Assembly (NCBI GenBank): GCA_963780535.1
Contig: CAWACS010000043.1
Location: 17,613 to 81,612, forward strand
Direction of reading: 5' to 3'
Length of the DNA: 64,000 bases
Source: an uncultured Verrucomicrobiae bacterium
GTDB lineage: Bacteria > Verrucomicrobiota > Verrucomicrobiia > Limisphaerales > UBA11358
Under the pieces are notes generated by a model that saw nothing but the letters and a program-made list of their open reading frames with translations, made no database searches and was not told the DNA's origin. Position numbers and translations under genes: made by a program. This document shows positions 2,041 to 12,807 of the stretch, piece by piece (within the stretch, counting starts at the first letter, position 1; each line of letters starts with the position of its first letter).

Positions 2041-2160
2041 AGGTAGTGGCACCTTTTGGTGGGGCGAGGCTGCTGACGAGCCGGCCTTGGCGCGTCAAAG
2101 CGTAACGAAGACGGCTCGCGGGGACGCTCGCCCCACCGAAAGTCGCAAAATGTGCCACCA
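2041..2160. repeat. REP-A palindromic intergenic element (long form)
   Basis: Inner arms GGTGGGGCGAG (2058) / CTCGCCCCACC (2128); outer arms GGTAGTGGCAC / GTGCCACC. Related copies at 5213, 23695 and 44015. Confidence 0.8.
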
Positions 2161-2209
2161 GCCATTTTTTTCGTTGCCTTTGCGGATTCAATTCCTAACT
2201 TGCTTGATA

Positions 2210-5152
2210 ATGAAAGCCATCACCCTGGTCTCCCGTCTCTTTCTTGCCATTTCGCTCGCTCTTTCCGCCGCGACGGCGTTCGGGGCCGAAATGTCGCCGG
2301 CCTCCGAACGGCTGTTGTTGGATTTCGGCTGGAAATTTCATCTCGGCAACGACTGGGGTTTTGCCCAAAGCCTGGCCAAGGCCGGCACCGGCAGCGGCCC
2401 GGCGAGCATGTCCTTCAGCGACGCGAGCTGGCGTCCGGTGAACCTGCCGCATGATTGGGTCGTGGAACTGCCATTCGATCCCAGTGCGGACGCCGGACAC
2501 GGCTTCAAGCCGGTCGGGCCGGGCTTTCCGCAAAACAGCGTCGCGTGGTACCGCCGCGCGTTTGACTTGCCGAAAACGGACGGGGGCAAGCGGCTGTGGC
2601 TGGAATTCGACGGCGTGTATCGCGATTGCGATGTGTTCGTGAACGGCTGGTTCGTCGGCCATCACAACAGCGGTTACGACAGCTTTCGTTATGACATCAC
2701 CGATGTGGCGAATTACGGGAGTAAAAACGTCGTGGCCGTGAAAGTGGATGCCTCGCAATTTGAAGGCTGGTTTTACGAAGGCGCGGGGATCTACCGGCAC
2801 GTCTGGCTCGTGAAAACCGCGCCGGTCGCCATCGCCCCGGACGGGATTTTTGTTTACAGTAAATTCAAAAATAATGTGCCGGAAGACCTGGCCGAGATTC
2901 ATATCGAAACCCGGCTGTGCAATTCGCAAAGCAACTCCGCCGCTGCAACCGTTAAATGTGAAATCATCAGTCCTGATGGAAAATCCGTCGGCCAGACTGA
3001 AAAACCACTTGATTTGAAATCGTGGGCTGACCAGCAAGTTGAGTCCGGTTTTTATCTGGTTCGTGAAGGGAAACCATTCGATATGGAAACTCCCATCGGC
3101 TGGAATGTCGTTTCTCACACGCCAATCCTCTGGTCTCCGGAATCACCCAAACTTTACAAGCTCATCACGACCGTTGAAAGCGGTGGAAAAATTGTTGACC
3201 AAAAAGAAACCGAGTTCGGCATCCGCACCGTCGCCTTCGACCCGGACAAGGGATTTCTGCTCAACGGCAAGCCTTACGAATTGCACGGCACGTGCAATCA
3301 CCAGGACATGGCGGGCGTGGGCGCGGCGCTGCCGGACGGGTTGCAATATTTTCGCGTCGAGAAATTAAAGGCGATGGGTTGCAACGCCATCCGCACGTCG
3401 CACAATGCGCCCACGCCGGAACTGCTTGAAGCCTGTGATCATCTCGGCCTGCTGGTGATGGATGAAAACCGCCTGCTCGGCAGTGATGCGGCCAACCTGG
3501 CCCAGTTCGAGGGTCAAATCCGGCGCGACCGGAACCATCCCAGCGTCGCCATCTGGAGCCTCGCCAACGAGGAATTCACCGTGCAGGACACGCCCGCCGG
3601 CAAACGGGTCGCCGATACCATGCAGACACTGCTCCAACGGCTTGACCCGACGCGGCCGATCACGTATGCCGCGCCCGTCGGCGACGATTATGAGGCCAAC
3701 ATCAATTCCGTCATCGAAGTCCGCGGCTGGAATTATCACGTCGGGCAGGACATGGACAATTATCACCGGGAACACCCGGCCCAGCCGGAAGTAGGCACCG
3801 AACAGGGCAGCACGGTCAGCACACGCGGCATTTACACCAACAACGCCGTCCGCGGTTACGTCAGTTCCTACGATTCGAACGCGCAACCCTGGTCAAACAC
3901 GGCCGAAAGCTGGTGGAGTTACTTCGCGGACCGTCCCTGGTTGTCGGGCGGGTTCATCTGGACGGGTTTTGATTATCGCGGCGAACCGACGCCGTACGGC
4001 TGGCCGTGCATCAATTCGCACTTTGGCGTCATGGACACGTGCGGTTTTCCCAAGGACCTTTACTACTATTACCAGGCCTGGTGGACGGACCAGCCGGTGC
4101 TGCACCTGTTGCCGCATTGGAACTGGCCGGGCCGGGAAGGCCAGGCCATTAACGTCTGGTGCTTCAGCAACTGCAAGGAGGTGGAATTGTTCTTGAACGG
4201 GAAAAGCCTGGGCCGGAAAACGATGAAACCCAATTCGCACCTGACCTGGACGGTGAACTACGAACCCGGCACGCTCTCGGCCAAGGGTTATGACCAAGAC
4301 GGCAAAGTGATTGCTGAAACCAAGGTGGAAACGACCGGCGACCCCGCCGCCGTCCAACTGGAGCCCGACCGCGCCACCATCAACGCCGACGGCGAGGATG
4401 TGAGCGTCATTACCGTTTCCGTGCGCGACGCGCAGAACCGCGTGGTGCCGGTGGCAACCAATCTGGTGGCTTTCGACCTCGAAGGTCCCGGAAAAATCCT
4501 GGGTGTTGGCAACGGCGACCCCAGTTGCCATGAGCCGGACATTTACCTGGCAAAGTGGCCGATCGAGACGGTTGCCCTCAATGACGGCTGGCATTGGAAA
4601 AAGGTGCCGAACGTGTATGATTCAAAGCCGCCCGAGGTGGAAACCAATTACGACGATTCGAGCTGGGAAACGGTTGATCCGCGGGCCGACAGCGGACCCT
4701 TGCGGGACCGCGGCCAGGCGGTTTTCCGCGCCAAAATCCAGGTGACCGAACAGGAACTGGCCGCCGAAAGTGTTGAGCTGAATTTCGGCAGGATTGACGA
4801 GGAAGGCTGGGTTTATGTCAACGGCCAGAAAGCCGGGGAATCCCATGACTGGCAATCGTCACCCGCCTTTGATGTAAAACGTTTTCTCCATCCCGGCGAG
4901 AATGTCATTGCCGTCGCGCTGGCCAACTGGAACGGCGCCGGCGGCATCAACAAGGGCGTGACCCTGCGGCTGGCTGGAAAACCGGAAATGCCCCAGTGGC
5001 AACGCAGCGTGTTCAATGGACTAGCGCAAATCATCGTGCAATCCAGCAAAACCCCGGGTGAAATCAAACTGACCGCGCGGGCGGAAGGGCTGTCGCCGGT
5101 GACGGTGATGATTCAGTCCCAACCATGCACGCCGCGCCCGGCCGTGCCTTGA
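2210..5152 (+). CDS. glycoside hydrolase family 2 (beta-galactosidase-like), secreted
   Basis: Signal peptide MKAITLVSRLFLAISLALSAATAFG starts at ATG 2210. GH2 signatures: NHPSVAIWSLANE and GGFIWTGFDYRGEP. The 41 codons upstream in the longest ORF lie inside REP-A and are rejected. Confidence 0.85.
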   Translation: MKAITLVSRLFLAISLALSAATAFGAEMSPASERLLLDFGWKFHLGNDWGFAQSLAKAGTGSGPASMSFSDASWRPVNLPHDWVVELPFDPSADAGHGFKPVGPGFPQNSVAWYRRAFDLPKTDGGKRLWLEFDGVYRDCDVFVNGWFVGHHNSGYDSFRYDITDVANYGSKNVVAVKVDASQFEGWFYEGAGIYRHVWLVKTAPVAIAPDGIFVYSKFKNNVPEDLAEIHIETRLCNSQSNSAAATVKCEIISPDGKSVGQTEKPLDLKSWADQQVESGFYLVREGKPFDMETPIGWNVVSHTPILWSPESPKLYKLITTVESGGKIVDQKETEFGIRTVAFDPDKGFLLNGKPYELHGTCNHQDMAGVGAALPDGLQYFRVEKLKAMGCNAIRTSHNAPTPELLEACDHLGLLVMDENRLLGSDAANLAQFEGQIRRDRNHPSVAIWSLANEEFTVQDTPAGKRVADTMQTLLQRLDPTRPITYAAPVGDDYEANINSVIEVRGWNYHVGQDMDNYHREHPAQPEVGTEQGSTVSTRGIYTNNAVRGYVSSYDSNAQPWSNTAESWWSYFADRPWLSGGFIWTGFDYRGEPTPYGWPCINSHFGVMDTCGFPKDLYYYYQAWWTDQPVLHLLPHWNWPGREGQAINVWCFSNCKEVELFLNGKSLGRKTMKPNSHLTWTVNYEPGTLSAKGYDQDGKVIAETKVETTGDPAAVQLEPDRATINADGEDVSVITVSVRDAQNRVVPVATNLVAFDLEGPGKILGVGNGDPSCHEPDIYLAKWPIETVALNDGWHWKKVPNVYDSKPPEVETNYDDSSWETVDPRADSGPLRDRGQAVFRAKIQVTEQELAAESVELNFGRIDEEGWVYVNGQKAGESHDWQSSPAFDVKRFLHPGENVIAVALANWNGAGGINKGVTLRLAGKPEMPQWQRSVFNGLAQIIVQSSKTPGEIKLTARAEGLSPVTVMIQSQPCTPRPAVP

Positions 5153-5358: not shown

Positions 5359-5582
5359 GTTATCATCGGAACCGCTATAGTTTTGAGCCTCTTGCGTATT
5401 TTTGTGGCTATGGTTTTAGTTAATTTTTTCAACGCGGATACCGGAGAGGGAAAGAATCCGCGAAAATTCATGGAATTCGTGTCGGATTTCAAGTTGCAAA
5501 GAATTGTCAAAGTAAGTGTTGACATCATGCCAGTATTTGCTGTGATGGTTGGCGCAGGACATGAGACCATTCGGCACATGTA

Positions 5583-5927
5583 ATGCCGCTTGCTCAGGGC
5601 AAGTCAACCGCGCAACCGCGCAATAGTGCAGGGGAATCGTTTACCCGATCAAAATCTGGTTTGGCGCGCTTTGGCATGGATCGGGCGCATAGCTTTGCGC
5701 ACACCGGAATTGACCACCAAATCCAACCCTGCATCGAAATGAATGGTGGAACAATTAAAACTGGGGACATGGGCCCACGTGGCCAACTGGTTTTACCGTG
5801 GGGAAAAAGTAAATTTGTGTCAATACTTGGGACTGAACCCTTTACTGGCGATTGGCTGCGCTGGGTGAGCACGCGCGGCGGCAAAGGCCCGTGGAACGAG
5901 CCGGTCAGCGCTACGATTGCAGGATGA
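5583..5927 (+). CDS. possible gene remnant with FN3-like C-terminal strand
   Basis: The tail ...DWLRWVSTRGGKGPWNEPVSATIAG resembles the last strands of fibronectin-III-like domains. Its stop overlaps the next ATG (ATGA at 5924-5927). The N-terminal part looks non-coding. Weak call. Confidence 0.25.
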   Translation: MPLAQGKSTAQPRNSAGESFTRSKSGLARFGMDRAHSFAHTGIDHQIQPCIEMNGGTIKTGDMGPRGQLVLPWGKSKFVSILGTEPFTGDWLRWVSTRGGKGPWNEPVSATIAG

Positions 5928-7078
5928 AAGCGAAATGCAACATCCACAAGATGGCTTTAGTTGTCTTGGTGTTAGTTGTTTTAGTAGCGCAACCTTGGCT
6001 TGCTGACGCCGGGCAAGTAATTGATGTTCAGGGGCACTATGTTAAGACGCTCTATAGATACGGGAAACCAACAAGTGAATCTTTGCGTGTAACTTTTTTC
6101 ATTACCCTTTCGACAAACGCCTGTGGGATATGGGCGACGAACATGGACGATGCCTCTGTATGGGAAACTGTTGTTTACGATGGCACCAATACATATTTGC
6201 TAACTCCGATTGCCGGCCATTCCCCCCAAGGGGCGAGCGGAGCCACATTGTGTGGACTTGTAGATCCCGGACGTCAGTACTATACGATGGGCATAAGTTT
6301 TTTGGATACATATATTCCGTGGATAACATATTGCTTACGACCGTCTGACGTAACTCCCCACATGCATACACCCGGCGTGAACTGGAGAAGTGATGTAAAT
6401 ACTTATGGCTGGCGTTGGAAAGAGGTTGTGATTTCTTCCGACGGAAGGTTTTTGCAAGGATTTGTAATTGTCCGGGATTCATCGCTTGATTTGAACGGCA
6501 AGAGCGAACTTCTCCGGACCAATCTTGAGTATCCGCGAACAATTGATGATTTTCAAAATCAGAATCAATATCTAGCTTATCGTAAAAGCATTCCCGATGG
6601 TTGGGTTGGAAGAACATATATATGCGAGCAGTGGTATGAGACAAATGGCTATACTATTCCCTTGAGCGCCGAATTTAAACATTATGCTTTTAGCGGCGGC
6701 AAAACGCTTCTTACTGACAGTATAATCATACAGGCCGATACGATAAGTGTTTCCGAAGAAGCCACAAACTCGGCTCCGCCGCTAGCAGAGAAAACTTATG
6801 TCAGGGATTACCGCTACACCCGCCGGAACGAAAGTCGGATGTTCCCCTATGCCGAATATGTCGGATCGGGATCATGGAAACCTGATAACGACCCAGAGTT
6901 ATTAGCACAAGCAAATCGTTATATGAAATATGGGCCTACATTTGGTGATTTTGGGGTAGTGTCGAAGTTTTTCAGTCCTCAAGGAGGTCGCTTAATAGTG
7001 ATTTGGCTGTCATTGTTGCTCGTCAACGTAACAGTGATTGTCATATTAGTCCGTAACAAACTAAAAAAACACAAATAA
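5924..7078 (+). CDS. hypothetical exported, C-terminally membrane-anchored protein
   Basis: Signal peptide (MALVVLVLVVLVAQPWLADA). C-terminal TM helix plus basic tail (LIVIWLSLLLVNVTVIVILVRNKLKKHK). AT-richer than the flanks. No family recognised. Confidence 0.6.
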   Translation: MKAKCNIHKMALVVLVLVVLVAQPWLADAGQVIDVQGHYVKTLYRYGKPTSESLRVTFFITLSTNACGIWATNMDDASVWETVVYDGTNTYLLTPIAGHSPQGASGATLCGLVDPGRQYYTMGISFLDTYIPWITYCLRPSDVTPHMHTPGVNWRSDVNTYGWRWKEVVISSDGRFLQGFVIVRDSSLDLNGKSELLRTNLEYPRTIDDFQNQNQYLAYRKSIPDGWVGRTYICEQWYETNGYTIPLSAEFKHYAFSGGKTLLTDSIIIQADTISVSEEATNSAPPLAEKTYVRDYRYTRRNESRMFPYAEYVGSGSWKPDNDPELLAQANRYMKYGPTFGDFGVVSKFFSPQGGRLIVIWLSLLLVNVTVIVILVRNKLKKHK

Positions 7079-7082
7079 CAAC

Positions 7083-7328
7083 ATGAAAAATAAACTAAAA
7101 ATGACAATCGGTTTGCTTGCATTGTTGGGGATTGGAATAATCCCTGTGTCCATATTGGCTGCGGAAGATGCGGCAGCCTGCGCGTCGGAGACGCCTCCAT
7201 GTGATGGAGGAGAATGCCTGGCAAGTTATCCTGCAGGAGGCAATCAGCGTGGCCAATGTATTCAACAGGACAACCCTAGGTTTGACGGGGATCCGAAATG
7301 GTGCTTTTGTATTCCCGCCGGCAATTAG
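7083..7328 (+). CDS. small secreted cysteine-rich protein (6 Cys in a mature part of about 54 aa)
   Basis: Starts 4 nt after the previous stop. Signal peptide MKNKLKMTIGLLALLGIGIIPVSILA. Mature Cys pattern is C-x6-C-x4-C-x14-C-x14-C-x-C. Confidence 0.6.
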   Translation: MKNKLKMTIGLLALLGIGIIPVSILAAEDAAACASETPPCDGGECLASYPAGGNQRGQCIQQDNPRFDGDPKWCFCIPAGN

Positions 7329-7331
7329 GCC

Positions 7332-7853
7332 TTGTTAACCAAGCCACCATGCTTGATAAATCCATTGAAGCGACAAAGCAAAAAACAGAGCCAAGATCGT
7401 GTATCCGGCTCTGTTATCCTTGTTATAAGCCGAACACTTTTTATAAAATCAGCGGGAGTGTTGTTAACATTGACAGCGTTGGCAAAGCTGTATACAGCAT
7501 ATGCGGGATTGCGAATAATTGATTTGCACGATCCAATTCTGGGGTTCCGATTTCGCCACGAGTTGTTAGCCATCGGCATATTGGAGTTAACAATCGCTTG
7601 CGTGTGTTTGCTTACAAACCGCATCGGCTTGCAGTTGGGGCTTATTGCATGGCTGGGAACATGCTTCGCGGTGTATCGGTTAGGTCTATGGTGGATCGGC
7701 GGTGTTCAAGCTTGTCCTTGTCTCGGCAATTTTCCTGATGATCTTCATCTTTCAAAGGCAATCACCAATGCTATAACGTCGTGGATTATAATCTATTTAT
7801 TGATAGGGAGTTACAGCGGGCTGCTTAATATATGTTTACGAAAATCGGAGTAG
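7332..7853 (+). CDS. MauE/DoxX-like four-helix membrane protein
   Basis: Starts 3 nt after the previous stop (TTG start in the track). Four hydrophobic helices. CPCLG motif after helix 3, resembling the CGCFG-type motif of the MauE family. Confidence 0.5.
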
Positions 7854-10186
7854 TTTTCAGAGCAACAGTGCTGCTCGCAGTGCTTGTTTGCTGCCTATTC
7901 CAGTATGCATTGCGGTATCGCAGTCCTTTGAATAGGGATATTGCCACATTTGAACTGGTTTTTCTGCCTCAAGCCCAGTGGATGATTTTCGTGCTGGCTT
8001 GTGTTTGGTGCATTGGTCTGATCGCTTTGACGTATCAGTGGAACAATTTGTGGTTGATTGGACTTCTGTTGATTGTAGTCTTCGCCTATGCATCAAATTA
8101 CAAAATAGCTGCCTCGGATCCCAGCGCCTTAATTCTGTTGGTTGCTGTGGCTGCTGGCAAAGGAATCCTTTATTTTCGACAACAGAGACTCACACTTTCC
8201 TGTCTGATTGCGCTCTTGGTGGTGGCTTCCTGTTGGCACATTGAAAAGATTGTTGGCCATTATGTCGGGCCGCGCTGGATGGGGCTTTGGGATAATCCCA
8301 ATGACTACGGGTTGTTGATGGCCGTGGGCTTGATTCTAGCCGTTGGATTGTTGGCCGCGAAGAGGCACAAAAGGCACATAGAAACAGCAAATCAGAAAGC
8401 GGAAGGCGGAAACCAGGAAATAACAATCATAAAAAGGTACAAAGAGCACAAAGAAAATTCAAATTCTTTATTCCGTTCCTTTTTGCGTTCTCTGCGCTTT
8501 TTTGCGGCCAAAATAATTTCTGTTCTTCTTTTTATCGCGGCCTTTATGATGGCAACAGGATTGATCTTCAGTTACAGCCGTGGCGCATGGGTGGGAACGG
8601 CCATTGGGTTGCTGTATCTGGCAATGACTTACGGAAAGTTCAAGTGGCGGTGGGTGATACCGGGAATTTTCGTCGTGGCGGCGGTGGTATGGTTTTTCTG
8701 GAATGCCACGCCGGACAATGCGCCGTGGTATGTGAAGCGGCTGGATTTAGGCAGGGCATCGGCGCAACACCGGGTTGCGGCTTGGAAAGCGGGCTTTCAA
8801 ATGATGCGGGATCATCCTTTTGGCGTGGGTTGGAACGAGGTCGTTGATCTTTATCAGAAAAATTATTTGCCGCCGGAAGATGGCGCGGCGGCCATTACCA
8901 CGAATGATTATTTGATGCTGGGGACGCAATTGGGCTTGCCAGGGTTGATTTGTTTTGTGGCCTACGCTGCGCTCTGCTTTGTAGATAGGAGATGGAAGTT
9001 GGGAGTTGGCAAAGAAAAGCCTCACCTCACCCCGGCCCTCTCCCCATTTGGCCCCGCTGCCCCCGCCAAACGCGGAGAGGGAGAATTGTCGGTCGTCGCG
9101 ACGCAAACCATTTCACTTGGCACTCGTCACCTGTCACCCGCTTTCGCGTCACTTGCCACCCGTCACCTGTCACTCCAAGCCGCCTGCCGTTCGGCGGCGC
9201 TGGCCATGCTGGTGGCGTTTTGGTTTGACGGCGGGTTGTTCAAGCTGGCCACGGCAGCGGTGTTCTGGATTCTGTTGGAATTGGGAGCAGAGACAAGACG
9301 GAAGACAGAGGTCAGGGACCAGAAGACAGAGATCGAAAATCAGAAGTCAGAAGTCAGAAACCCGACCTCTGACCTCCGACCTCTGACTTCCGGCTTTACG
9401 CTCATTGAATTGCTGGTCGTTATCGCCATCATCGCAATTCTGGCCGCGCTATTGCTGCCCGCTCTTTCTGTCGCTAAACGAAGGGCTTCAGATATTCAGT
9501 GCATAAATAATCTCGGCCAAATGGCGATAGCAGGCACGCTATATTCCCATGATCACGATAAAACCGTCGCTTATACGGACGACTTGGGTATACCAAGGGC
9601 TGGCGACATCTGGTTGGCCCTTTTAAGCGAGTATTACTCTAATGTGAATGCCATTCGCCTCTGCCCGTTCGCATCGCAAGTCGCTACAAACACAGTTTGG
9701 TACGCAAAAGACATGAATAGCGCATGGCTTTTCAGATCCGTGGTGGATCCGAATAAGACTTATTCGGGGAGCTACGCGATGAATGGCTGGCTTTACACAG
9801 GTTTGCCGGACCCCAACGGCTACTTTTTCGAAAAATATTCCGCTGTAAAAAATACATCCATGACTCCGTTTTTCTGCGATTCCATCTGGGCAGATGTCTG
9901 GCCCGATGAAGTATCCGGCCCGGCGATTGATTTGACGAGGGGCGCGCTCACACCGGATATTGGACGCATAACCATTGCTCGACACGGCATATCTCCCGGG
10001 AATGTCCCCAGAAACATGACGGGCACCACGCCACTTCCGGGGTTCATCAATCTCTCCTTTATGGATGGACACGCGGAACGGGCATCCTTGGAGAGTCTGT
10101 GGGGGTTTTTGTGGCATCTAAAGTATGCGCCGCCAAAAATCCGCCCCCCGGCGATCGGTCAACCTCCACCGTGGCCGCCTAAATGA
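7832..10186 (+). CDS. single 784-aa ORF joining an O-antigen-ligase/Wzy_C-type polytopic protein to a prepilin-type protein
   Basis: N-terminal about 490 aa are multi-TM with Wzy_C-type loop motifs ([39 protein letters not shown]). There is no stop codon before the pilin-like module. The junction and one loop consist of repeat elements. Confidence 0.6.
9036..9081. repeat. CCCTCTCCCC...GGAGAGGG palindromic element inside a CDS
   Basis: Arms at 9036-9045 and 9074-9081. Translated in frame as [16 protein letters not shown]. Same arm sequence as the elements at 30291-30389. Confidence 0.7.
9124..9176. repeat. 7-nt periodic array (GTCACCY-type) inside a CDS
   Basis: tcGTCACCTGTCACCCgctttcgcGTCACTTGCCACCCGTCACCTGTCACTcc, translated as [17 protein letters not shown]. 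Confidence 0.7.
9289..9391. repeat. inverted pair of 7-nt arrays, (CAGAAGT)n / (GACCTCT)n, at the ligase-pilin junction
   Basis: Left: ...atCAGAAGTCAGAAGTCAGAAA. Right: GACCTCTGACCTCCGACCTCTGACTTCC. The arms are imperfectly complementary. Translated as ...[21 protein letters not shown]. Confidence 0.75.
9392..10186 (+). other. prepilin-type N-terminal cleavage/methylation module with DUF1559/H-X9-DG-like C-terminus
   Basis: G|[24 protein letters not shown] class-III signal at 9392. C-terminal ...[11 protein letters not shown]. No in-frame ATG/GTG/TTG in the roughly 30 codons upstream, so no independent canonical start is visible. Confidence 0.6.
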
Positions 10187-10221
10187 CGTCATAAATTATA
10201 TTGGCGTATCACACAGAATTC

Positions 10222-11955
10222 ATGACCAGCCCATCCACAGAATTCACCAGGAAACGGTTCACCATTTGGATTGTTCTTGGCGCGATTTTGTTTGTCTTGG
10301 GTTGGAGGGCGTTGGTGATAGCCGCTCAATATTTCAACGAACCTGATGTTGTCCGGGAACTTTGTTCCATACCGCAATTCGAGCAGGACTTGATTCCCAA
10401 CAGTGCCAACACGCGCTTGGTATTTTGCCAGGACACGGAGGCTGGCGTTGGTATTTATTTTTGCGATACCGACGGTGGGAAACCGCAATTATTGTGCGAA
10501 CAGAAAGAAAAAGGGAATCATTACAGACGTTTCTCGATGTTAGGTTGGGCTCCGGATGACAGTCTATTCGCGTGTGCTTGGCCGGAGAACACACAAGATC
10601 AAGAGTTCATCCTGATTTTTGATGGTCTCACGGGCCAGCTTTTAAGCAAGCTTGAAGCTGACCAAAGCTTTGAACAGTTTACTTGGCTTTCCAGTGGATC
10701 TTTCGCTTATTCCGCAGGCGGCACCTCGGTCAGGGTTGTCATCAAGCAGGCGGATGGTAGTTGGGTTCATAAGCGATATTTTGAGAATGTTGCCACCAAT
10801 ATGGACAATTTCGTCGCTTTTTCTCCCGATTCAGTTGCCTGGCACGACGGCAACGCGATTTGGTTGTTCAATCTTGATTCGGGCTCCTCGGAAAAAGTCT
10901 GGGAAGCGACCAATCAGTTGGTGGAGTTTACCATCGCCAGGGATAGCGGCGGATTTTTGCTGAATTGCAGCGATGACCTTGGACAATATCTGTCGTGGTT
11001 TGACCTGCAGGACAAACGTACAGTTGATTTGGGGCGGATCAGCGACCAGCAGAATTACATCCGTAACGCCATCTGGAACGGTCATGGCAGCAGTTACGCC
11101 TACCTGACGAACGATTTGGCGGGAAGCGCCTTTTGTATCAAGACCGCAGAAATGACCACGCCGATCACAATTACATGGCGCGGGGGCGTTCACAATTTAA
11201 CCCTGAACGGCAATCAATTGTTTTTCACCGGCAATCCGGAAGATCAACCACCGGGTATTTGGGAATACGACATCCAATTCAAAACCTTCAAATGTATAGT
11301 TCCCAGCACAAGCGGCCCGCCTGGAAATAGGATCGGGAGTCCGCCGATGTGTCAAATGATGACCAACTCCCTGGGCGAACAACGGTTCTACCATCTTTGG
11401 GGGCCACCTCATGTTTCACCCAATAAGAAATATCCGGTCTTGCTAGCTCAGGAGCTTAACTACTGGTTCCCCTGTTTTCAGGTCGCCGCCGACAGCGGTT
11501 ACTATGTGGCAGTGGTGGATCGCCCATTCTTCAACACTTGGGATGGGAATCCAGAGCATTCGTGGGTTGAAGACGTTAGTGGTCTCTATGAGGTTGCGAT
11601 GCGCAATCCAAACGTTGATACCAACCGTGTTTATCTTTACGCCTGCAGCAGAGAGACATCATTTTTGAGCCAATTGATGAATGAGAGGCCATCACTGGCG
11701 AAGGGCGCAATTCTATTCAGTCCGACCGGTCTTCCCGATGCTTCTGCCTTGCAAAACAAGCGGATTCTGATCGTGGATGGAAAGCTCGATGGCGACGCCT
11801 CACAGCGATTTTCTGAATTTCAGGACCGTGCAGCCCAGGAAGGGAATAACGTTACACTCCTTCTGCAAGATAATGCGGGTCATATTTCCGCCTCCGGCAC
11901 AACTCTATGTAATCAGGCGAGGCTGTTTGCCAAATTTATCTCGGATTACAAATGA
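10222..11955 (+). CDS. membrane-anchored beta-propeller plus alpha/beta-hydrolase (S9-peptidase-like) protein
   Basis: N-terminal TM (FTIWIVLGAILFVLGWRALVIAA). TolB/WD-like repeats (WAPDDSLFACAW, FSPDSVAWHDGNAIWLFNLDSG). C-terminal hydrolase-like region (KYPVLLAQ..., YLYACSRE, DGKLDGD, NAGHI). A TTG at 10201 is an alternative start. Confidence 0.6.
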   Translation: MTSPSTEFTRKRFTIWIVLGAILFVLGWRALVIAAQYFNEPDVVRELCSIPQFEQDLIPNSANTRLVFCQDTEAGVGIYFCDTDGGKPQLLCEQKEKGNHYRRFSMLGWAPDDSLFACAWPENTQDQEFILIFDGLTGQLLSKLEADQSFEQFTWLSSGSFAYSAGGTSVRVVIKQADGSWVHKRYFENVATNMDNFVAFSPDSVAWHDGNAIWLFNLDSGSSEKVWEATNQLVEFTIARDSGGFLLNCSDDLGQYLSWFDLQDKRTVDLGRISDQQNYIRNAIWNGHGSSYAYLTNDLAGSAFCIKTAEMTTPITITWRGGVHNLTLNGNQLFFTGNPEDQPPGIWEYDIQFKTFKCIVPSTSGPPGNRIGSPPMCQMMTNSLGEQRFYHLWGPPHVSPNKKYPVLLAQELNYWFPCFQVAADSGYYVAVVDRPFFNTWDGNPEHSWVEDVSGLYEVAMRNPNVDTNRVYLYACSRETSFLSQLMNERPSLAKGAILFSPTGLPDASALQNKRILIVDGKLDGDASQRFSEFQDRAAQEGNNVTLLLQDNAGHISASGTTLCNQARLFAKFISDYK

Positions 11956-12057
11956 CCTTTGACACTGCCAACTTCAATTCAATCGTGACCGGTTTCTCTG
12001 GGGAAGGGTTGGAACGATGGATTGTAGTCGCTCGGACCGGCATTGGTCTGGAAAGAT

Positions 12058-12747
12058 ATGCAGCCTAAACTCACGTTCTACTTCACGAATTCGGCCGCCG
12101 CCTTGCTGGCCGCCATGGCCACAGTTTTTTTTGTCGGCAATCTGGCCACCGGAACCTTGGTTCAACCACACGACCCGGTGTTGATGGTTTCTATGCGGAT
12201 TTTGTTTTGGATTCTGGGGATGGCTGGACTGGCGGTGTCCTTGTTCTGCATCTTTGCGAACAATCCTCAGTGGAAGATTGCACTTGTTCTGTGGCTTTCC
12301 CTGGACTTGGTGATTTACGGATTTGCCTTTCAATGGAGTGGGACACATGGCCTCGGCACCTATTTGGGCGCGGTTGCAGAACCATTCGGACTCTCAACCG
12401 GCACGTCCGGCTTCATTCTGACAGCCATGTTTGTGTATTTATTGGTAGGCAGTTCCTTTTTGCTCGGATCCTCCTGGTGGCAAAAGATTAGAGAGGAAGC
12501 AGGTGGCTACCTGAAAATTCCATGTCCCTCCTGTGGGGGCAAAATTAAATTTCCGCCGGCTGATATGGGCCGACAGATTCCTTGTCCGCATTGTCAGGTA
12601 TTGCTTACGCTGCGAAAACCCGAAGACAGGATGAAAATGGTCTGCGTTTTGTGTGGAGGACACGTTGAATTCCCCGCCCATGCGCTGGGACAAAAAATCC
12701 CATGCCCTCATTGCGCGAAAACCATCACACTGCTTCAGCCAACTTGA
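12058..12747 (+). CDS. membrane protein with two C-terminal zinc-ribbon repeats
   Basis: Four or five hydrophobic helices followed by CPSCGGKIKFP...IPCPHCQ and CVLCGGHVEFP...IPCPHCA. A TTG at 12043 is an alternative start. Confidence 0.6.
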   Translation: MQPKLTFYFTNSAAALLAAMATVFFVGNLATGTLVQPHDPVLMVSMRILFWILGMAGLAVSLFCIFANNPQWKIALVLWLSLDLVIYGFAFQWSGTHGLGTYLGAVAEPFGLSTGTSGFILTAMFVYLLVGSSFLLGSSWWQKIREEAGGYLKIPCPSCGGKIKFPPADMGRQIPCPHCQVLLTLRKPEDRMKMVCVLCGGHVEFPAHALGQKIPCPHCAKTITLLQPT

Positions 12748-12807
12748 ACGGCTTTGTCGCGGATGACATTGGTGATTCACAGCAGGCCCTGTGTGCCTTG
12801 AGGAAAC

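Follow-up and report, generated by a model that had tools for sequence, protein, structure and literature searches.

MauE was recently put forward as second in frequency among the disulfide-forming enzymes of bacteria (bioRxiv 10.64898/2026.03.05.709764). According to this preprint, MauE complements E. coli dsbB and replaces DsbB by means of a periplasmic CXC, which mutagenesis found to be essential in two MauE proteins, and the site predicted for quinone has a conserved Lys in TM1 and a conserved Glu in TM2. The CXC, in which X is usually Gly or Ala, is followed by a highly conserved Phe-Gly, and MauA is present in only 10% of MauE-containing species. In the mau cluster, as the work of van der Palen et al. 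1997 is cited in PMC7794033 and in the preprint, MauE and MauD mature MauA, the disulfide-rich small subunit of methylamine dehydrogenase. Outside the methylamine pathway, mauE homologs also lie beside predicted small precursor peptides in candidate RiPP families of Streptomyces found with decRiPPter, whose authors read the gene as having a peptide-modifying or disulfide-forming function (PMC7794033).

Here, we followed up a first-pass annotation of a 64,000-nucleotide stretch of DNA from an uncultured Verrucomicrobiae bacterium (hereafter the window), in which a secreted six-cysteine mini-protein had been paired with a MauE-like membrane protein. As in the mau cluster, a MauE-family membrane protein stands beside a small exported Cys-rich polypeptide that would need several disulfides. 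However, the putative client here, a six-Cys peptide of 40-58 aa, has no relation to MauA, its neighbours are Wzy_C, pilin-like and further envelope proteins of no known family, and none of the six ORFs scanned between 5852 and 12747 matched MauA, MauB, MauD or MauG in Pfam or NCBIfam. The pair sits within an envelope module of seven genes that is conserved and low in GC, as judged from gene content in related loci. Within this module the peptide and the MauE-like protein are probably a client and its folding oxidase, given that the MauE family has recently been shown to make disulfide bonds. The features of the locus are collected in Table 1.

Table 1. Features of the peptide and MauE-like gene pair and of its neighbourhood in the window
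Positions	Strand	Feature	Basis
5924..7078	+	~384-aa envelope protein gene; N-terminal signal/anchor, C-terminal TM helix and basic tail	no known family
7083..7160	+	residues 1-26 of the six-Cys precursor, a Sec-type signal peptide (MKNKLKMTIGLLALLGIGIIPVSILA)	evident from the sequence
7161..7328	+	mature six-Cys mini-protein and stop codon	54-55 aa; conserved Cys framework; dN/dS
7332..7853	+	divergent MauE-family four-TM protein, probable DsbB-like thiol oxidase	homology, AF2, active-site features; start uncertain
7349..7351	+	ATG matching the conserved MauE-like start in L013 and L001, out of frame in the window	DNA alignment A7, start-codon list
7713..7727	+	C128-P-C130-L-G (residues 128-132), CXC in the TM3-TM4 loop, predicted periplasmic	sequence, alignment, AF2
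7832..10186	+	O-antigen-ligase-like (Wzy_C) membrane protein carrying a fused pilin-like domain of prepilin type (N_methyl)	22-nt overlap with the end of the MauE-like ORF
10201..11955	+	584-aa membrane-anchored module protein, unknown family	tblastn
12043..12747	+	MauE-like paralog without CXC, TM1 Lys or TM2 Glu, fused to two cytoplasmic CxxC...CxxC zinc-ribbon units	hhalign, zinc-ribbon matches

The six-cysteine mini-protein

The first gene of the pair is an 81-aa ORF with an ATG start (7083-7328, + strand). Its precursor begins with a lysine-rich stretch, continues with a hydrophobic core and has an AxA-type site for cleavage between SILA and AED, and sites of this type (ILA, VLA, ALA, AYA) occur in every member of the family. 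The clear signal peptide and the mature part of about 54 aa with six Cys described in the first-pass annotation hold up, as do its Cys gaps apart from the third, which is x13 rather than x14, the full spacing being C-x6-C-x4-C-x13-C-x14-C-x-C-x5. A lipoprotein was considered and rejected: the residues up to Cys1 (AAAC, LASC, LANC, LADC, ATGC, VTGC) form no consistent lipobox, and the AxA sites are consistent. The small ORF was missed by gene finders on some contigs, e.g., L002.

Six Cys, the Pro preceding Cys2 and the Gly two residues ahead of Cys4 are invariant across the family (alignments A4-A6), as is the CXC close to the C-terminus, in peptides that are only 28-37% identical. This framework is kept in at least eight distinct sequences. 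Two independent comparisons gave low dN/dS for the peptide ORF, namely 0.12-0.14 against the related loci L013 and L001 and 0.10 for the L002/L010 pair. A loose regular expression for the framework returned 11 matches in 199 kb of window and related loci read in six frames; every one of them is the ORF immediately upstream of a MauE-like gene, with none elsewhere, and shuffled windows used as the control returned 0.06 matches each. The peptide gene is confirmed as real and under purifying selection, and the small ORF, whose lack of conservation had been named as grounds for dropping the proposal, recurs in relatives.

Database searches place the peptide in a narrow family. Pfam and NCBIfam gave zero matches at E<=1. 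Against 5.8 billion proteins in a word-indexed search, the single sequence found one homolog and a 7-sequence profile found six, all on contigs also bearing a MauE-like gene. An HMM of the mature peptide, run exhaustively over 1.84 billion representative proteins, recovered only four proteins, all of which had been used to build the query, and so no wider family was seen. The family appears to be new and confined to one lineage.

The first-pass annotation had likened the terminal CxC to knottin or defensin-type folds and had suggested a toxin, bacteriocin or signal. The idea that the peptide is a secreted antimicrobial or toxin of the defensin-like or bacteriocin type, with the MauE-like protein as its dedicated maturation factor, has several points in its favour. 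Like the bacterial cis-defensins (CS-alpha-beta; xanthusin-1, five classes; PMC11561630), which establish that such peptides exist in bacteria, it has a Sec signal, a six-Cys mature part of ~40-55 aa, a GXC before Cys4 and a CXC formed by the last two Cys, i.e., a GXC...C 'gamma-core-like' signature. The top-ranked PDB sequence for the peptide profile comes from Art v 1, a match to its defensin-like domain whose alignment spans the GxC and the CxC, but whose E of 0.1 is not significant. Furthermore, the sequences change quickly (28-37% identity) while the Cys scaffold stays fixed, as effector peptides typically do, and mauE homologs occur in the candidate RiPP clusters of Streptomyces (PMC7794033).

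However, the remaining evidence on charge, Cys spacing and fold goes against this reading. Unlike membrane-active defensins, the nine family peptides that were compared all carry a negative net charge (-1 to -8, pI 4.1-5.1; -5 and pI 4.1 in the window). The gap between Cys2 and Cys3 is 4 or 5 residues, Gly/Pro-rich, where cis-defensins have CX3C, and therefore all members fail the cis-defensin framework CX(2,18)CX(3)CX(2,12)CX(4,17)CXC (PMC11561630); the C3-C4 gap of the window peptide (13) and the C4-C5 gap of L004 (3) also fall outside its ranges. The first-pass annotation had itself remarked that CxxxC spacing was missing, and it is absent from all family peptides. Structure prediction, which that annotation had proposed as a check, gave an AF2 model with three beta-strands and no helix at moderate confidence (pLDDT about 62-75 in the mature part), where a defensin fold has an alpha-helix on a beta-sheet. 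Foldseek with this model against the PDB found nothing significant (best E 0.55), and neither Pfam nor Foldseek matched a knottin. Verrucomicrobiota are not among the phyla in which cis-defensins were reported (PMC11561630). Compared with the decRiPPter families, the phylum and the gene content differ, a Sec signal takes the place of the leader peptide and other tailoring enzymes are lacking. Immunity, ABC-exporter and protease genes are absent from the module, Sec export alone would deliver the peptide only to the periplasm of a diderm cell, and the low dN/dS gives no sign of diversifying selection. Anionic charge, absence of CxxxC and absence of a known fold thus disfavour the toxin or defensin idea, which we consider quite unlikely; the pair is not a stand-alone toxin cassette.

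The MauE-like membrane protein

The second ORF (7332-7853) encodes 173 aa. Its AF2 model (mean pLDDT 84.7) has four helices at residues 14-58, 74-94, 98-123 and 142-172, in agreement with the four-helix membrane protein with a CPCLG motif that had been described from the sequence, and places the CXC within the loop of residues 124-141. This loop is predicted to face the periplasm on the positive-inside rule, with about 10 Lys/Arg in the N-terminus, loop 2 and the C-terminus vs about 4 in loops 1 and 3. In an alignment of 27 MauE-like sequences (A1), C128, C130 and G132 are invariant, as is K52 in TM1, and E85 in TM2 is conserved in at least 90%; both K52 and E85 sit in the outer half of the predicted helices.

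The protein resembles the MauE oxidase of the preprint in its four-TM bundle, its periplasmic-loop CXC-x-Gly, its TM1 Lys and TM2 Glu, and its homology to the MauE model PF07291 through relatives. The window protein alone reaches 14.3 bits (E 0.051) over model positions 13-126 of 128, short of the Pfam gathering threshold of 27 bits, and the relatives nearest to it, P0002, P0005 and P0008, reach 14.8-18.6 bits. Across the family, 20 of 27 members match PF07291 at E<=0.01, and the gathering score is passed by five of the ten homologs tested singly (P0011, P0014, P0017, P0021 and P0026; 27.1-44.4 bits), to which the window protein is connected by phmmer at E values of 2e-31 to 3e-22. Judged by this homology through relatives, the window protein is a member of the MauE family. 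DoxX, which the first-pass annotation had named beside MauE, found no such support: PF07681 (gathering threshold 23.6 bits) did not match the window protein and matched 2 of 27 relatives weakly (best E 0.0024, 18.9 bits). The profile search recommended there thus came out for MauE at the level of the homologs, not of the window protein itself, and against DoxX.

In other respects the window protein departs from the described MauE. It belongs to a divergent sub-clade (14-19 bits vs 27), has C-P-C-L-G for the usual C-G-C-F-G and carries an extra invariant Cys in TM2 (C92). Throughout the clade the Phe of the canonical Phe-Gly is Leu or Met, and X of the CXC is Pro, Gly, Ser, Lys, Phe or Arg. The gene lies in an accessory low-GC island with a CXC-less paralog, and the oxidase role proposed for it here is a prediction. 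Its putative mechanism would be that of the DsbB/VKOR quinone-linked thiol oxidases, four-helix bundles in which periplasmic Cys pairs pass electrons to quinone. However, there is a single CXC instead of two Cys pairs, and no sequence or significant structural match to these enzymes: Foldseek of the model against the PDB gave nothing significant, with VKOR sixth at E 1.5, and a PDB sequence search with the MauE-like profile gave no matches.

The start of the gene is uncertain. In the two closest relatives it is an ATG which in the window corresponds to 7349, 20 nt past the peptide stop, and which a 1-nt insertion near 7393 (GAGCC[A]AGATCG) throws out of frame. This insertion leaves TTG 7332, 7353 or 7365 as possible starts in the window. 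A start 3 nt after the peptide gene, as first described, therefore applies to the first of these TTG codons only and not to the relatives. A frameshift or an assembly error near 7393 is possible, and with its conserved ATG out of frame the MauE-like protein may be impaired in the window. This insertion, together with the omission of the small ORF by gene finders, is what would suggest an artefact, either a chance small ORF or a pseudogenised MauE-like gene. Against it, the MauE-like ORF is open for 173 codons from the TTG with a dN/dS of 0.19 vs L013, and for the peptide such a reading is already largely refuted by purifying selection in two independent pairs and by the recurrence of the framework. 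Overall we regard an artefact as highly improbable.

Pairing of the two genes in related loci

Co-occurrence of small Cys-rich ORFs with MauE-like genes, a survey that had been recommended, was found wherever it could be read nearby. The peptide and MauE-like pair is present in 7/7 close loci with readable DNA (the window, L001, L013, L002/L003, L010, L004/L005 and L014). In the distant locus L007, at 48% identity, the same six-Cys module forms the C-terminus of a 10-Cys protein and the order of the two genes is kept. The proteins P0030 and P0003 are apparently encoded on one 2129-bp contig. A scan of species-representative genomes found one locus only, the degraded L009 (Verrucomicrobiota MAG SPRUCE_68), and a metagenome scan found three further loci.

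The spacing of the genes points upstream. In every close locus the peptide gene starts 1-5 nt after the gene for a ~400-aa protein, whereas in relatives the gap between the peptide and the MauE-like gene is 20-197 nt, so that relatives do not keep the 3-nt spacing. In five relatives the stretch separating these two genes had no consistent terminator or structured RNA, only L002 reaching z -3.0. MauE-like homologs at 40-48% identity (L011/L012, L017, L018, L006) have no peptide beside them, and next to three of these (L011/L012, L017, L018) the ~400-aa protein and Wzy_C neighbours are retained. The peptide is therefore not the sole charge of the oxidase, which has other clients or a general role. 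The original idea of a dedicated oxidative-folding partner thus survives in part: the pairing recurs in all close loci, with MauE homology and active-site features, but the tighter coupling upstream, the distant homologs that lack a peptide and the seven-gene module do not fit exclusive service to the peptide.

The envelope module and its low-GC island

The module comprises the ~400-aa tail-anchored protein, the peptide, the MauE-like protein, Wzy_C, the pilin-like part, a ~580-aa protein and the CXC-less MauE paralog. It lies in a stretch of about 5.5-12.5 kb with a GC content of 44-52% vs 56-64% in the flanks, which are occupied by housekeeping genes. Protein-family scans covered 15 of the window's ~50 larger ORFs, all in the first 27 kb. 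Neither the interior of the island nor its edges contained an Rfam family, tRNA or significant tandem repeat, scans for promoters and terminators gave little or nothing above background, and the literature on DUF1559/prepilin yielded nothing relevant. The same gene set in permuted order occurs in L004, L014 and L002.

The reading frame that precedes the peptide gene is open as far back as TTG 5852, with the ATG at 5924 the likely start, and ends 4 nt before the peptide gene. Genes for its ~400-aa homologs immediately precede the peptide gene or the MauE-like gene in L013, L002, L014, L004, L011, L015 and L007 (alignment A8, 16-84% identity); eight of them gave no Pfam match and the family profile no PDB sequence match. 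Only two Cys are conserved in this protein within the close clade, and no other product of the module comes near the Cys density of the peptide. The gene after the MauE-like one encodes Wzy_C in L002, L004, L006, L009, L011/L012, L014 and the P0006 contig, and the Wzy_C and pilin-like parts form one protein in L002 but two in L004. The 584-aa protein has a 573-aa counterpart in L004 (36% identity to window positions 10222-11940, E 6e-106, tblastn), and its counterpart in L002 has weak Abhydrolase_3/Peptidase_S9 matches. The CXC-less paralog was recognised with alignment A1 by hhalign (probability 99.1%, E 1.5e-18) and has homologs in L002 (45%), L014 (51%) and L004 (43%, without the ribbons).

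These observations bear on whether the MauE-like protein serves the peptide at all. It may instead be a general disulfide enzyme of the cell or of the island, its adjacency meaningless, and the ~400-aa protein the sole partner of the peptide. In favour of this, the preprint makes the case for MauE as a generalist oxidase (bioRxiv 10.64898/2026.03.05.709764), the peptide gene is coupled to its upstream rather than its downstream neighbour, and peptide-less MauE-like homologs keep the rest of their surroundings. However, the gene is located in an accessory island and not among core genes, the order of peptide and MauE-like gene is kept in all close loci read and in L007, and the Cys density of the peptide, set against the two conserved Cys of the ~400-aa protein, singles it out among the products of the module. 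We judge the generalist alternative unlikely, if deserving of real weight.

A second question is how electrons would travel between client and enzyme. MauE is thought to work via a thioredoxin-fold partner, which counts against an oxidase role here: none is encoded in the window's module, nor is there a homolog of the Trx-like gene of L014 and L009 in the 64 kb. The peptide itself could fill this place as a soluble redox carrier, with an active C-terminal CXC and two structural disulfides, passing disulfides between the CXC of the MauE-like protein and clients such as the pilin-like protein. Its CXC near the C-terminus is invariant, MauE itself uses a CXC, and the CXC-less MauE paralog suggests an elaborated redox or membrane complex. 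Mia40 offers an analogy, in that it combines a CPC with two structural pairs. Yet the carrier idea is purely inferential, a CXC on a beta-strand in Cys-rich mini-proteins usually belongs to two separate structural disulfides, Trx-like proteins are encoded at the related loci L014, L009 and L017, and distant MauE-like loci function without the peptide. We hold such a carrier to be very unlikely. A long shot of similar standing extends it to the whole module, which in Verrucomicrobiota would form a redox machine of the envelope that is complete in itself and has not been described before: a CXC-active MauE, a CXC-less paralog tethered to cytoplasmic zinc ribbons and the mini-protein, through its invariant C-terminal CXC, as a non-thioredoxin, Mia40-like substitute for DsbA would oxidise or assemble Wzy_C-pilin and tail-anchored surface proteins.

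Discussion

The explanation we prefer takes the peptide as a disulfide client, the MauE-like protein as a MauE-type oxidase, both as parts of a conserved envelope module, and the peptide as a partner of the ~400-aa protein; our confidence in this whole is evenly balanced. The 81-aa product would be exported by Sec and its signal peptide removed, whereupon the mature peptide would fold in the periplasm into a small beta-rich mini-protein with three disulfides. The MauE-like protein would act as a divergent MauE and functional analogue of DsbB, its periplasmic C-P-C drawing electrons from thiols and passing them to the membrane quinone. In this way disulfides would be supplied to the peptide and possibly to other products of the module, either directly or via a thioredoxin-fold carrier encoded elsewhere. 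The peptide, being translationally coupled to the ~400-aa protein, is most likely its small partner or subunit.

While the peptide gene, the conservation of its Cys framework and of synteny, the MauE-family homology and the active-site features are observations, we infer the client relationship, the membrane topology, the ~400-aa partnership and the periplasmic localisation. The sub-threshold score of the window protein, its Leu in place of the canonical Phe and the out-of-frame ATG count against an oxidase role, as does the missing thioredoxin-fold partner.

The peptide family is apparently found in one lineage, so the wider significance of the locus is limited unless an activity is found. 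Methylamine dehydrogenase supplies the only known natural client of MauE, and the locus offers a compact candidate client-oxidase pair, consisting of a 55-aa peptide with three predicted disulfides and a divergent MauE, in a phylum in which oxidative folding is unstudied. The presence of MauE in a conserved surface module with Wzy_C and pilin-like proteins and a redox-dead paralog hints that the family may have specialised, and not purely generalist, roles.

Conservation of the six-cysteine peptide

The small open reading frame (ORF) upstream of the MauE-like gene encodes a protein and evolves under purifying selection. Its precursor opens with a basic N-region, a hydrophobic core and an AxA-type signal-peptidase site (MKNKLKMTIGLLALLGIGIIPVSILA, with AED following the cleavage site), and the mature peptide of ~55 residues carries six cysteines spaced 6-4-13-14-1, with five residues beyond the last. 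The first-pass annotation had described this peptide correctly in every point except the third cysteine gap, which it gave as 14 residues and which measures 13.

Sequence searches recovered very few relatives. A single-sequence search of 5.8 billion clusters returned one, at 82% identity, a profile built from seven peptide sequences found six proteins, and when 1.84 billion representative proteins were searched exhaustively by HMM, the four matches were all sequences of the query profile itself. Contigs with homologs of the neighbouring membrane protein were fetched and then read for a small ORF at the same position, and an ORF with a signal peptide and the same cysteine scaffold was present there in related loci L013, L001, L002/L003 (where the gene finder had missed it), L010, L004/L005 and L014. 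A further member of the peptide family, P0030, and the MauE-like protein P0003 are apparently encoded on one 2129-bp contig. The relatives' peptides share 28-37% identity with that of the window, and keep the six cysteines, the Pro preceding Cys2 and the Gly two residues ahead of Cys4. In L007/L008, a 108-aa exported protein with 10 cysteines is encoded upstream of a MauE-like gene 48% identical to ours, and its final 36 residues match the framework (C-x7-C-x4-C-x10-C-x7-C-x-C). A loose regular expression for this framework gave 11 matches in six frames of 199 kb (window and loci), every one of them an ORF upstream of a MauE-like gene, against 0.06 matches in each shuffled window. The dN/dS of the peptide gene was 0.12-0.14 for the window against L013 and L001 and 0.10 for L002 against L010, equal to or lower than that of the neighbouring genes (0.15-0.19). 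Conservation of the small ORF, on which the earlier proposal depended, is thus evident from its synteny across the fetched loci and from these ratios, despite the scarcity of relatives in sequence searches.

Coordinates of genes in the window and in related loci
Feature	Sequence	Positions	Strand	Remarks
1021-aa ORF	window	2087-5152		flanks the module
~400-aa envelope protein	window	5924-7078	+
Six-cysteine precursor	window	7083-7328	+	ATG start, 81 codons; stop codon 7326-7328
MauE-like protein	window	7332-7853	+	open from TTG 7332, 173 codons; CPCLG at residues 128-132 (nt 7713-7727)
Wzy_C and prepilin-type pilin-like fusion	window	7832-10186	+	single ORF
~580-aa membrane-anchored protein	window	10201-11955	+	36% identity to the L004 573-aa protein
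234-aa MauE-like paralog	window	12043-12747	+	N-terminal ~150-aa membrane domain; hhalign probability 99.1%, E 1.5e-18
108-aa, 10-Cys protein	L007	5551-5877	+
141-aa, 12-Cys exported protein	L015	1659-2084	+
Thioredoxin-like protein	L014	6065-7510	-	AhpC-TSA/Redoxin
Thioredoxin-like protein	L009	7458-8873	-	AhpC-TSA/Redoxin
Thioredoxin-like protein	L017	1676-2908	+	AhpC-TSA/Redoxin

Identity of the membrane protein

The membrane protein itself gave a weak match to the Pfam MauE model (14.3 bits, threshold 27), although the alignment spans model positions 13-126 of 128, and NCBIfam gave no match to it. Its 26 homologs place it more clearly: 20 of the 27 family members match PF07291 at E<=0.01, and five of ten homologs tested individually passed the gathering score (27.1-44.4 bits). 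Of the two families that had been suggested from the sequence, MauE is therefore supported through the homologs and DoxX is not, as it gave weak matches in 2/27 members only. The alignment has invariant K52, P68, C92, Y115, R116, C128, C130 and G132, and E85 is kept in at least 90% of sequences. In the AlphaFold2 (AF2) model, four helices form a confidently predicted bundle (mean pLDDT 84.7), the CXC lying between helices 3 and 4. To judge by the placement of Lys and Arg, the N-terminus is probably cytoplasmic, which would make the CXC loop periplasmic.

According to a 2026 preprint, MauE from two phyla restores motility and PhoA activity in E. coli ΔdsbB; the CXC of its TM3-TM4 loop is essential and is mostly CGC followed by Phe-Gly, and a predicted quinone site is lined by Lys in TM1 and Glu in TM2, both of them conserved (bioRxiv 10.64898/2026.03.05.709764). 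In the window protein the CXC between TM3 and TM4 is present, as are Lys in TM1 and Glu in TM2, but in its clade the Phe after the CXC is Leu or Met, and there is an extra invariant Cys in TM2, whereas the two MauE proteins characterised in the preprint have the CXC cysteines only. Since its homologs match PF07291 and these features are shared, the protein is, judged by sequence, a divergent member of the MauE family and, by homology, a putative DsbB-like thiol oxidase. The extra residue, C92 (nt 7605-7607), lies near the cytoplasmic end of TM2 and is kept even in the CXC-less paralog.

The 3-nt gap to the peptide gene noted at first pass holds formally for a start at TTG 7332, but relatives do not share it. 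The MauE-like gene of L013 and L001 begins with an ATG equivalent to window position 7349, 20 nt past the peptide stop, and the gap in relatives is 20-197 nt. Compared with these two loci, a single base is inserted in the window near 7393 (GAGCC[A]AGATCG); ATG 7349 is thereby out of frame, and the gene body is open only from TTG 7332, 7353 or 7365. This base possibly reflects a frameshift or an error of assembly. It affects a cytoplasmic tail that shows no conservation and that the 141-aa homologs lack, and so may well leave the gene functional.

A conserved envelope module

The two genes form part of a conserved envelope module. At every locus the peptide gene starts 1-5 nt downstream of a gene for a ~335-410-aa protein (20 nt in L007), the product of which has a signal or anchor at its N-terminus and a TM helix and basic tail at its C-terminus, and found no relatives in Pfam or PDB searches. 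The MauE-like gene is almost always followed by a Wzy_C (O-antigen-ligase-like) gene and then a prepilin-type pilin-like gene, which are two genes in L004 and fused in the window and L002 (779 aa, 50% identity). The fusion would put the prepilin cleavage site ~520 residues into a membrane protein. Within its linker, at 9340-9392, lie a long imperfect inverted repeat (20 pairs) and a 14-nt tandem repeat; the region encodes a low-complexity stretch and may derive from an intergenic element over which translation now continues.

The 234-aa paralog lacks the CXC (LGTYLG instead), the TM1 Lys and the TM2 Glu, retains the TM2 Cys, and has two zinc-ribbon units (CxxC...CxxC) at its C-terminus; possibly it serves as a regulatory or scaffold partner without redox activity. 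It has homologs in L002, L014 and L004 (the last without ribbons). Gene order is permuted among loci, with the ~580-aa and 234-aa genes upstream in L004 and L014.

The module has a GC content of 44-52% (window ~5500-12750) against 56-64% in its flanks. The 1021-aa ORF precedes it, and it is followed by rpoD, a Kdo transferase gene and mfd. Neither edge of this island is marked by a tRNA or an Rfam element; transposase genes adjoin the module in L002, L006 and L007. At the left edge (5545-5924) there are only remnants of genes intact in L002, namely the last 24 codons of a 219-aa gene (5853-5924, 83% identity) and a match to a 165-aa gene (5545-5691, 46% identity), which suggests that DNA was deleted or rearranged here. 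Among species-representative genomes the single match was the Verrucomicrobiota MAG SPRUCE_68 (L009, JBEKZC010000035.1), in which the locus is degraded. There, at 5766-6213, a pilin-like N-terminus directly borders the C-terminal half of a MauE-like gene in a different frame; next come a Wzy_C gene, which is intact, and a thioredoxin-like gene (WATWCGPC) in convergent orientation.

Relationship of the putative oxidase and the peptide

Among MauE-like homologs at 40-48% identity (L011/L012, L017, L018, L006 and L015), L011/L012 have no peptide, though the ~335-aa protein and Wzy_C are kept, and it is also absent from L017 and L018. The region upstream of the MauE-like gene is disrupted in L006, and L015 has, instead of the peptide, the 12-Cys exported protein two genes upstream. 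The gene for this protein sits upstream of the ~400-aa gene, not downstream. Because homologs at this identity go without the peptide, the presumed oxidase must, on this comparison, be older than the peptide and have other clients or roles. Of the dedicated oxidative-folding partner proposed in the first-pass annotation, a client-oxidase link remains plausible through the divergent MauE, but exclusivity does not, given L011/L012, L017 and L018.

Thioredoxin-fold domains are fused to 8.2% of MauE proteins (bioRxiv 10.64898/2026.03.05.709764). The window's module encodes no thioredoxin-fold partner, and no homolog of the L014/L009 thioredoxin-like gene was found in the whole 64 kb. Near the module in L014, L009 and L017, large thioredoxin-fold proteins are encoded, which are possible MauD- or DsbA-like partners.

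It had also been considered that the peptide is a toxin or defensin. Its scaffold is similar to the cis-defensin pattern (GXC ... CXC), and its top PDB sequence match is the defensin-like domain of Art v 1, at a non-significant E of 0.1. However, bacterial cis-defensins are defined by a regular expression with a CX3C element (PMC11561630) that the peptide family lacks, Gly and Pro are abundant in the C2-C3 segment, every family member is anionic (net -1 to -8, pI 4.1-5.1), and no exporter, immunity or protease gene lies within the module; such a role is therefore unlikely. The AF2 model, of moderate confidence (pLDDT ~62-75 in the mature part), has three beta-strands and no helix, which also speaks against the earlier idea, and Foldseek against the PDB gave nothing significant (best E 0.55).

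The observation of a secreted cysteine-rich peptide beside a MauE-like protein is real, and the locus in this resembles the mau cluster, where MauE stands beside a Cys-rich client, and candidate RiPP clusters of Streptomyces, in which a Cys-rich client of mauE is suspected (PMC7794033). The best-supported mechanism, to which we give about even chances, is a client-oxidase relationship, in which the divergent MauE would supply disulfides to the adjacent six-cysteine peptide. The favoured view of the peptide itself is that it serves in the envelope as a structural component or ligand, most probably in concert with the ~400-aa protein with which it is co-translated.
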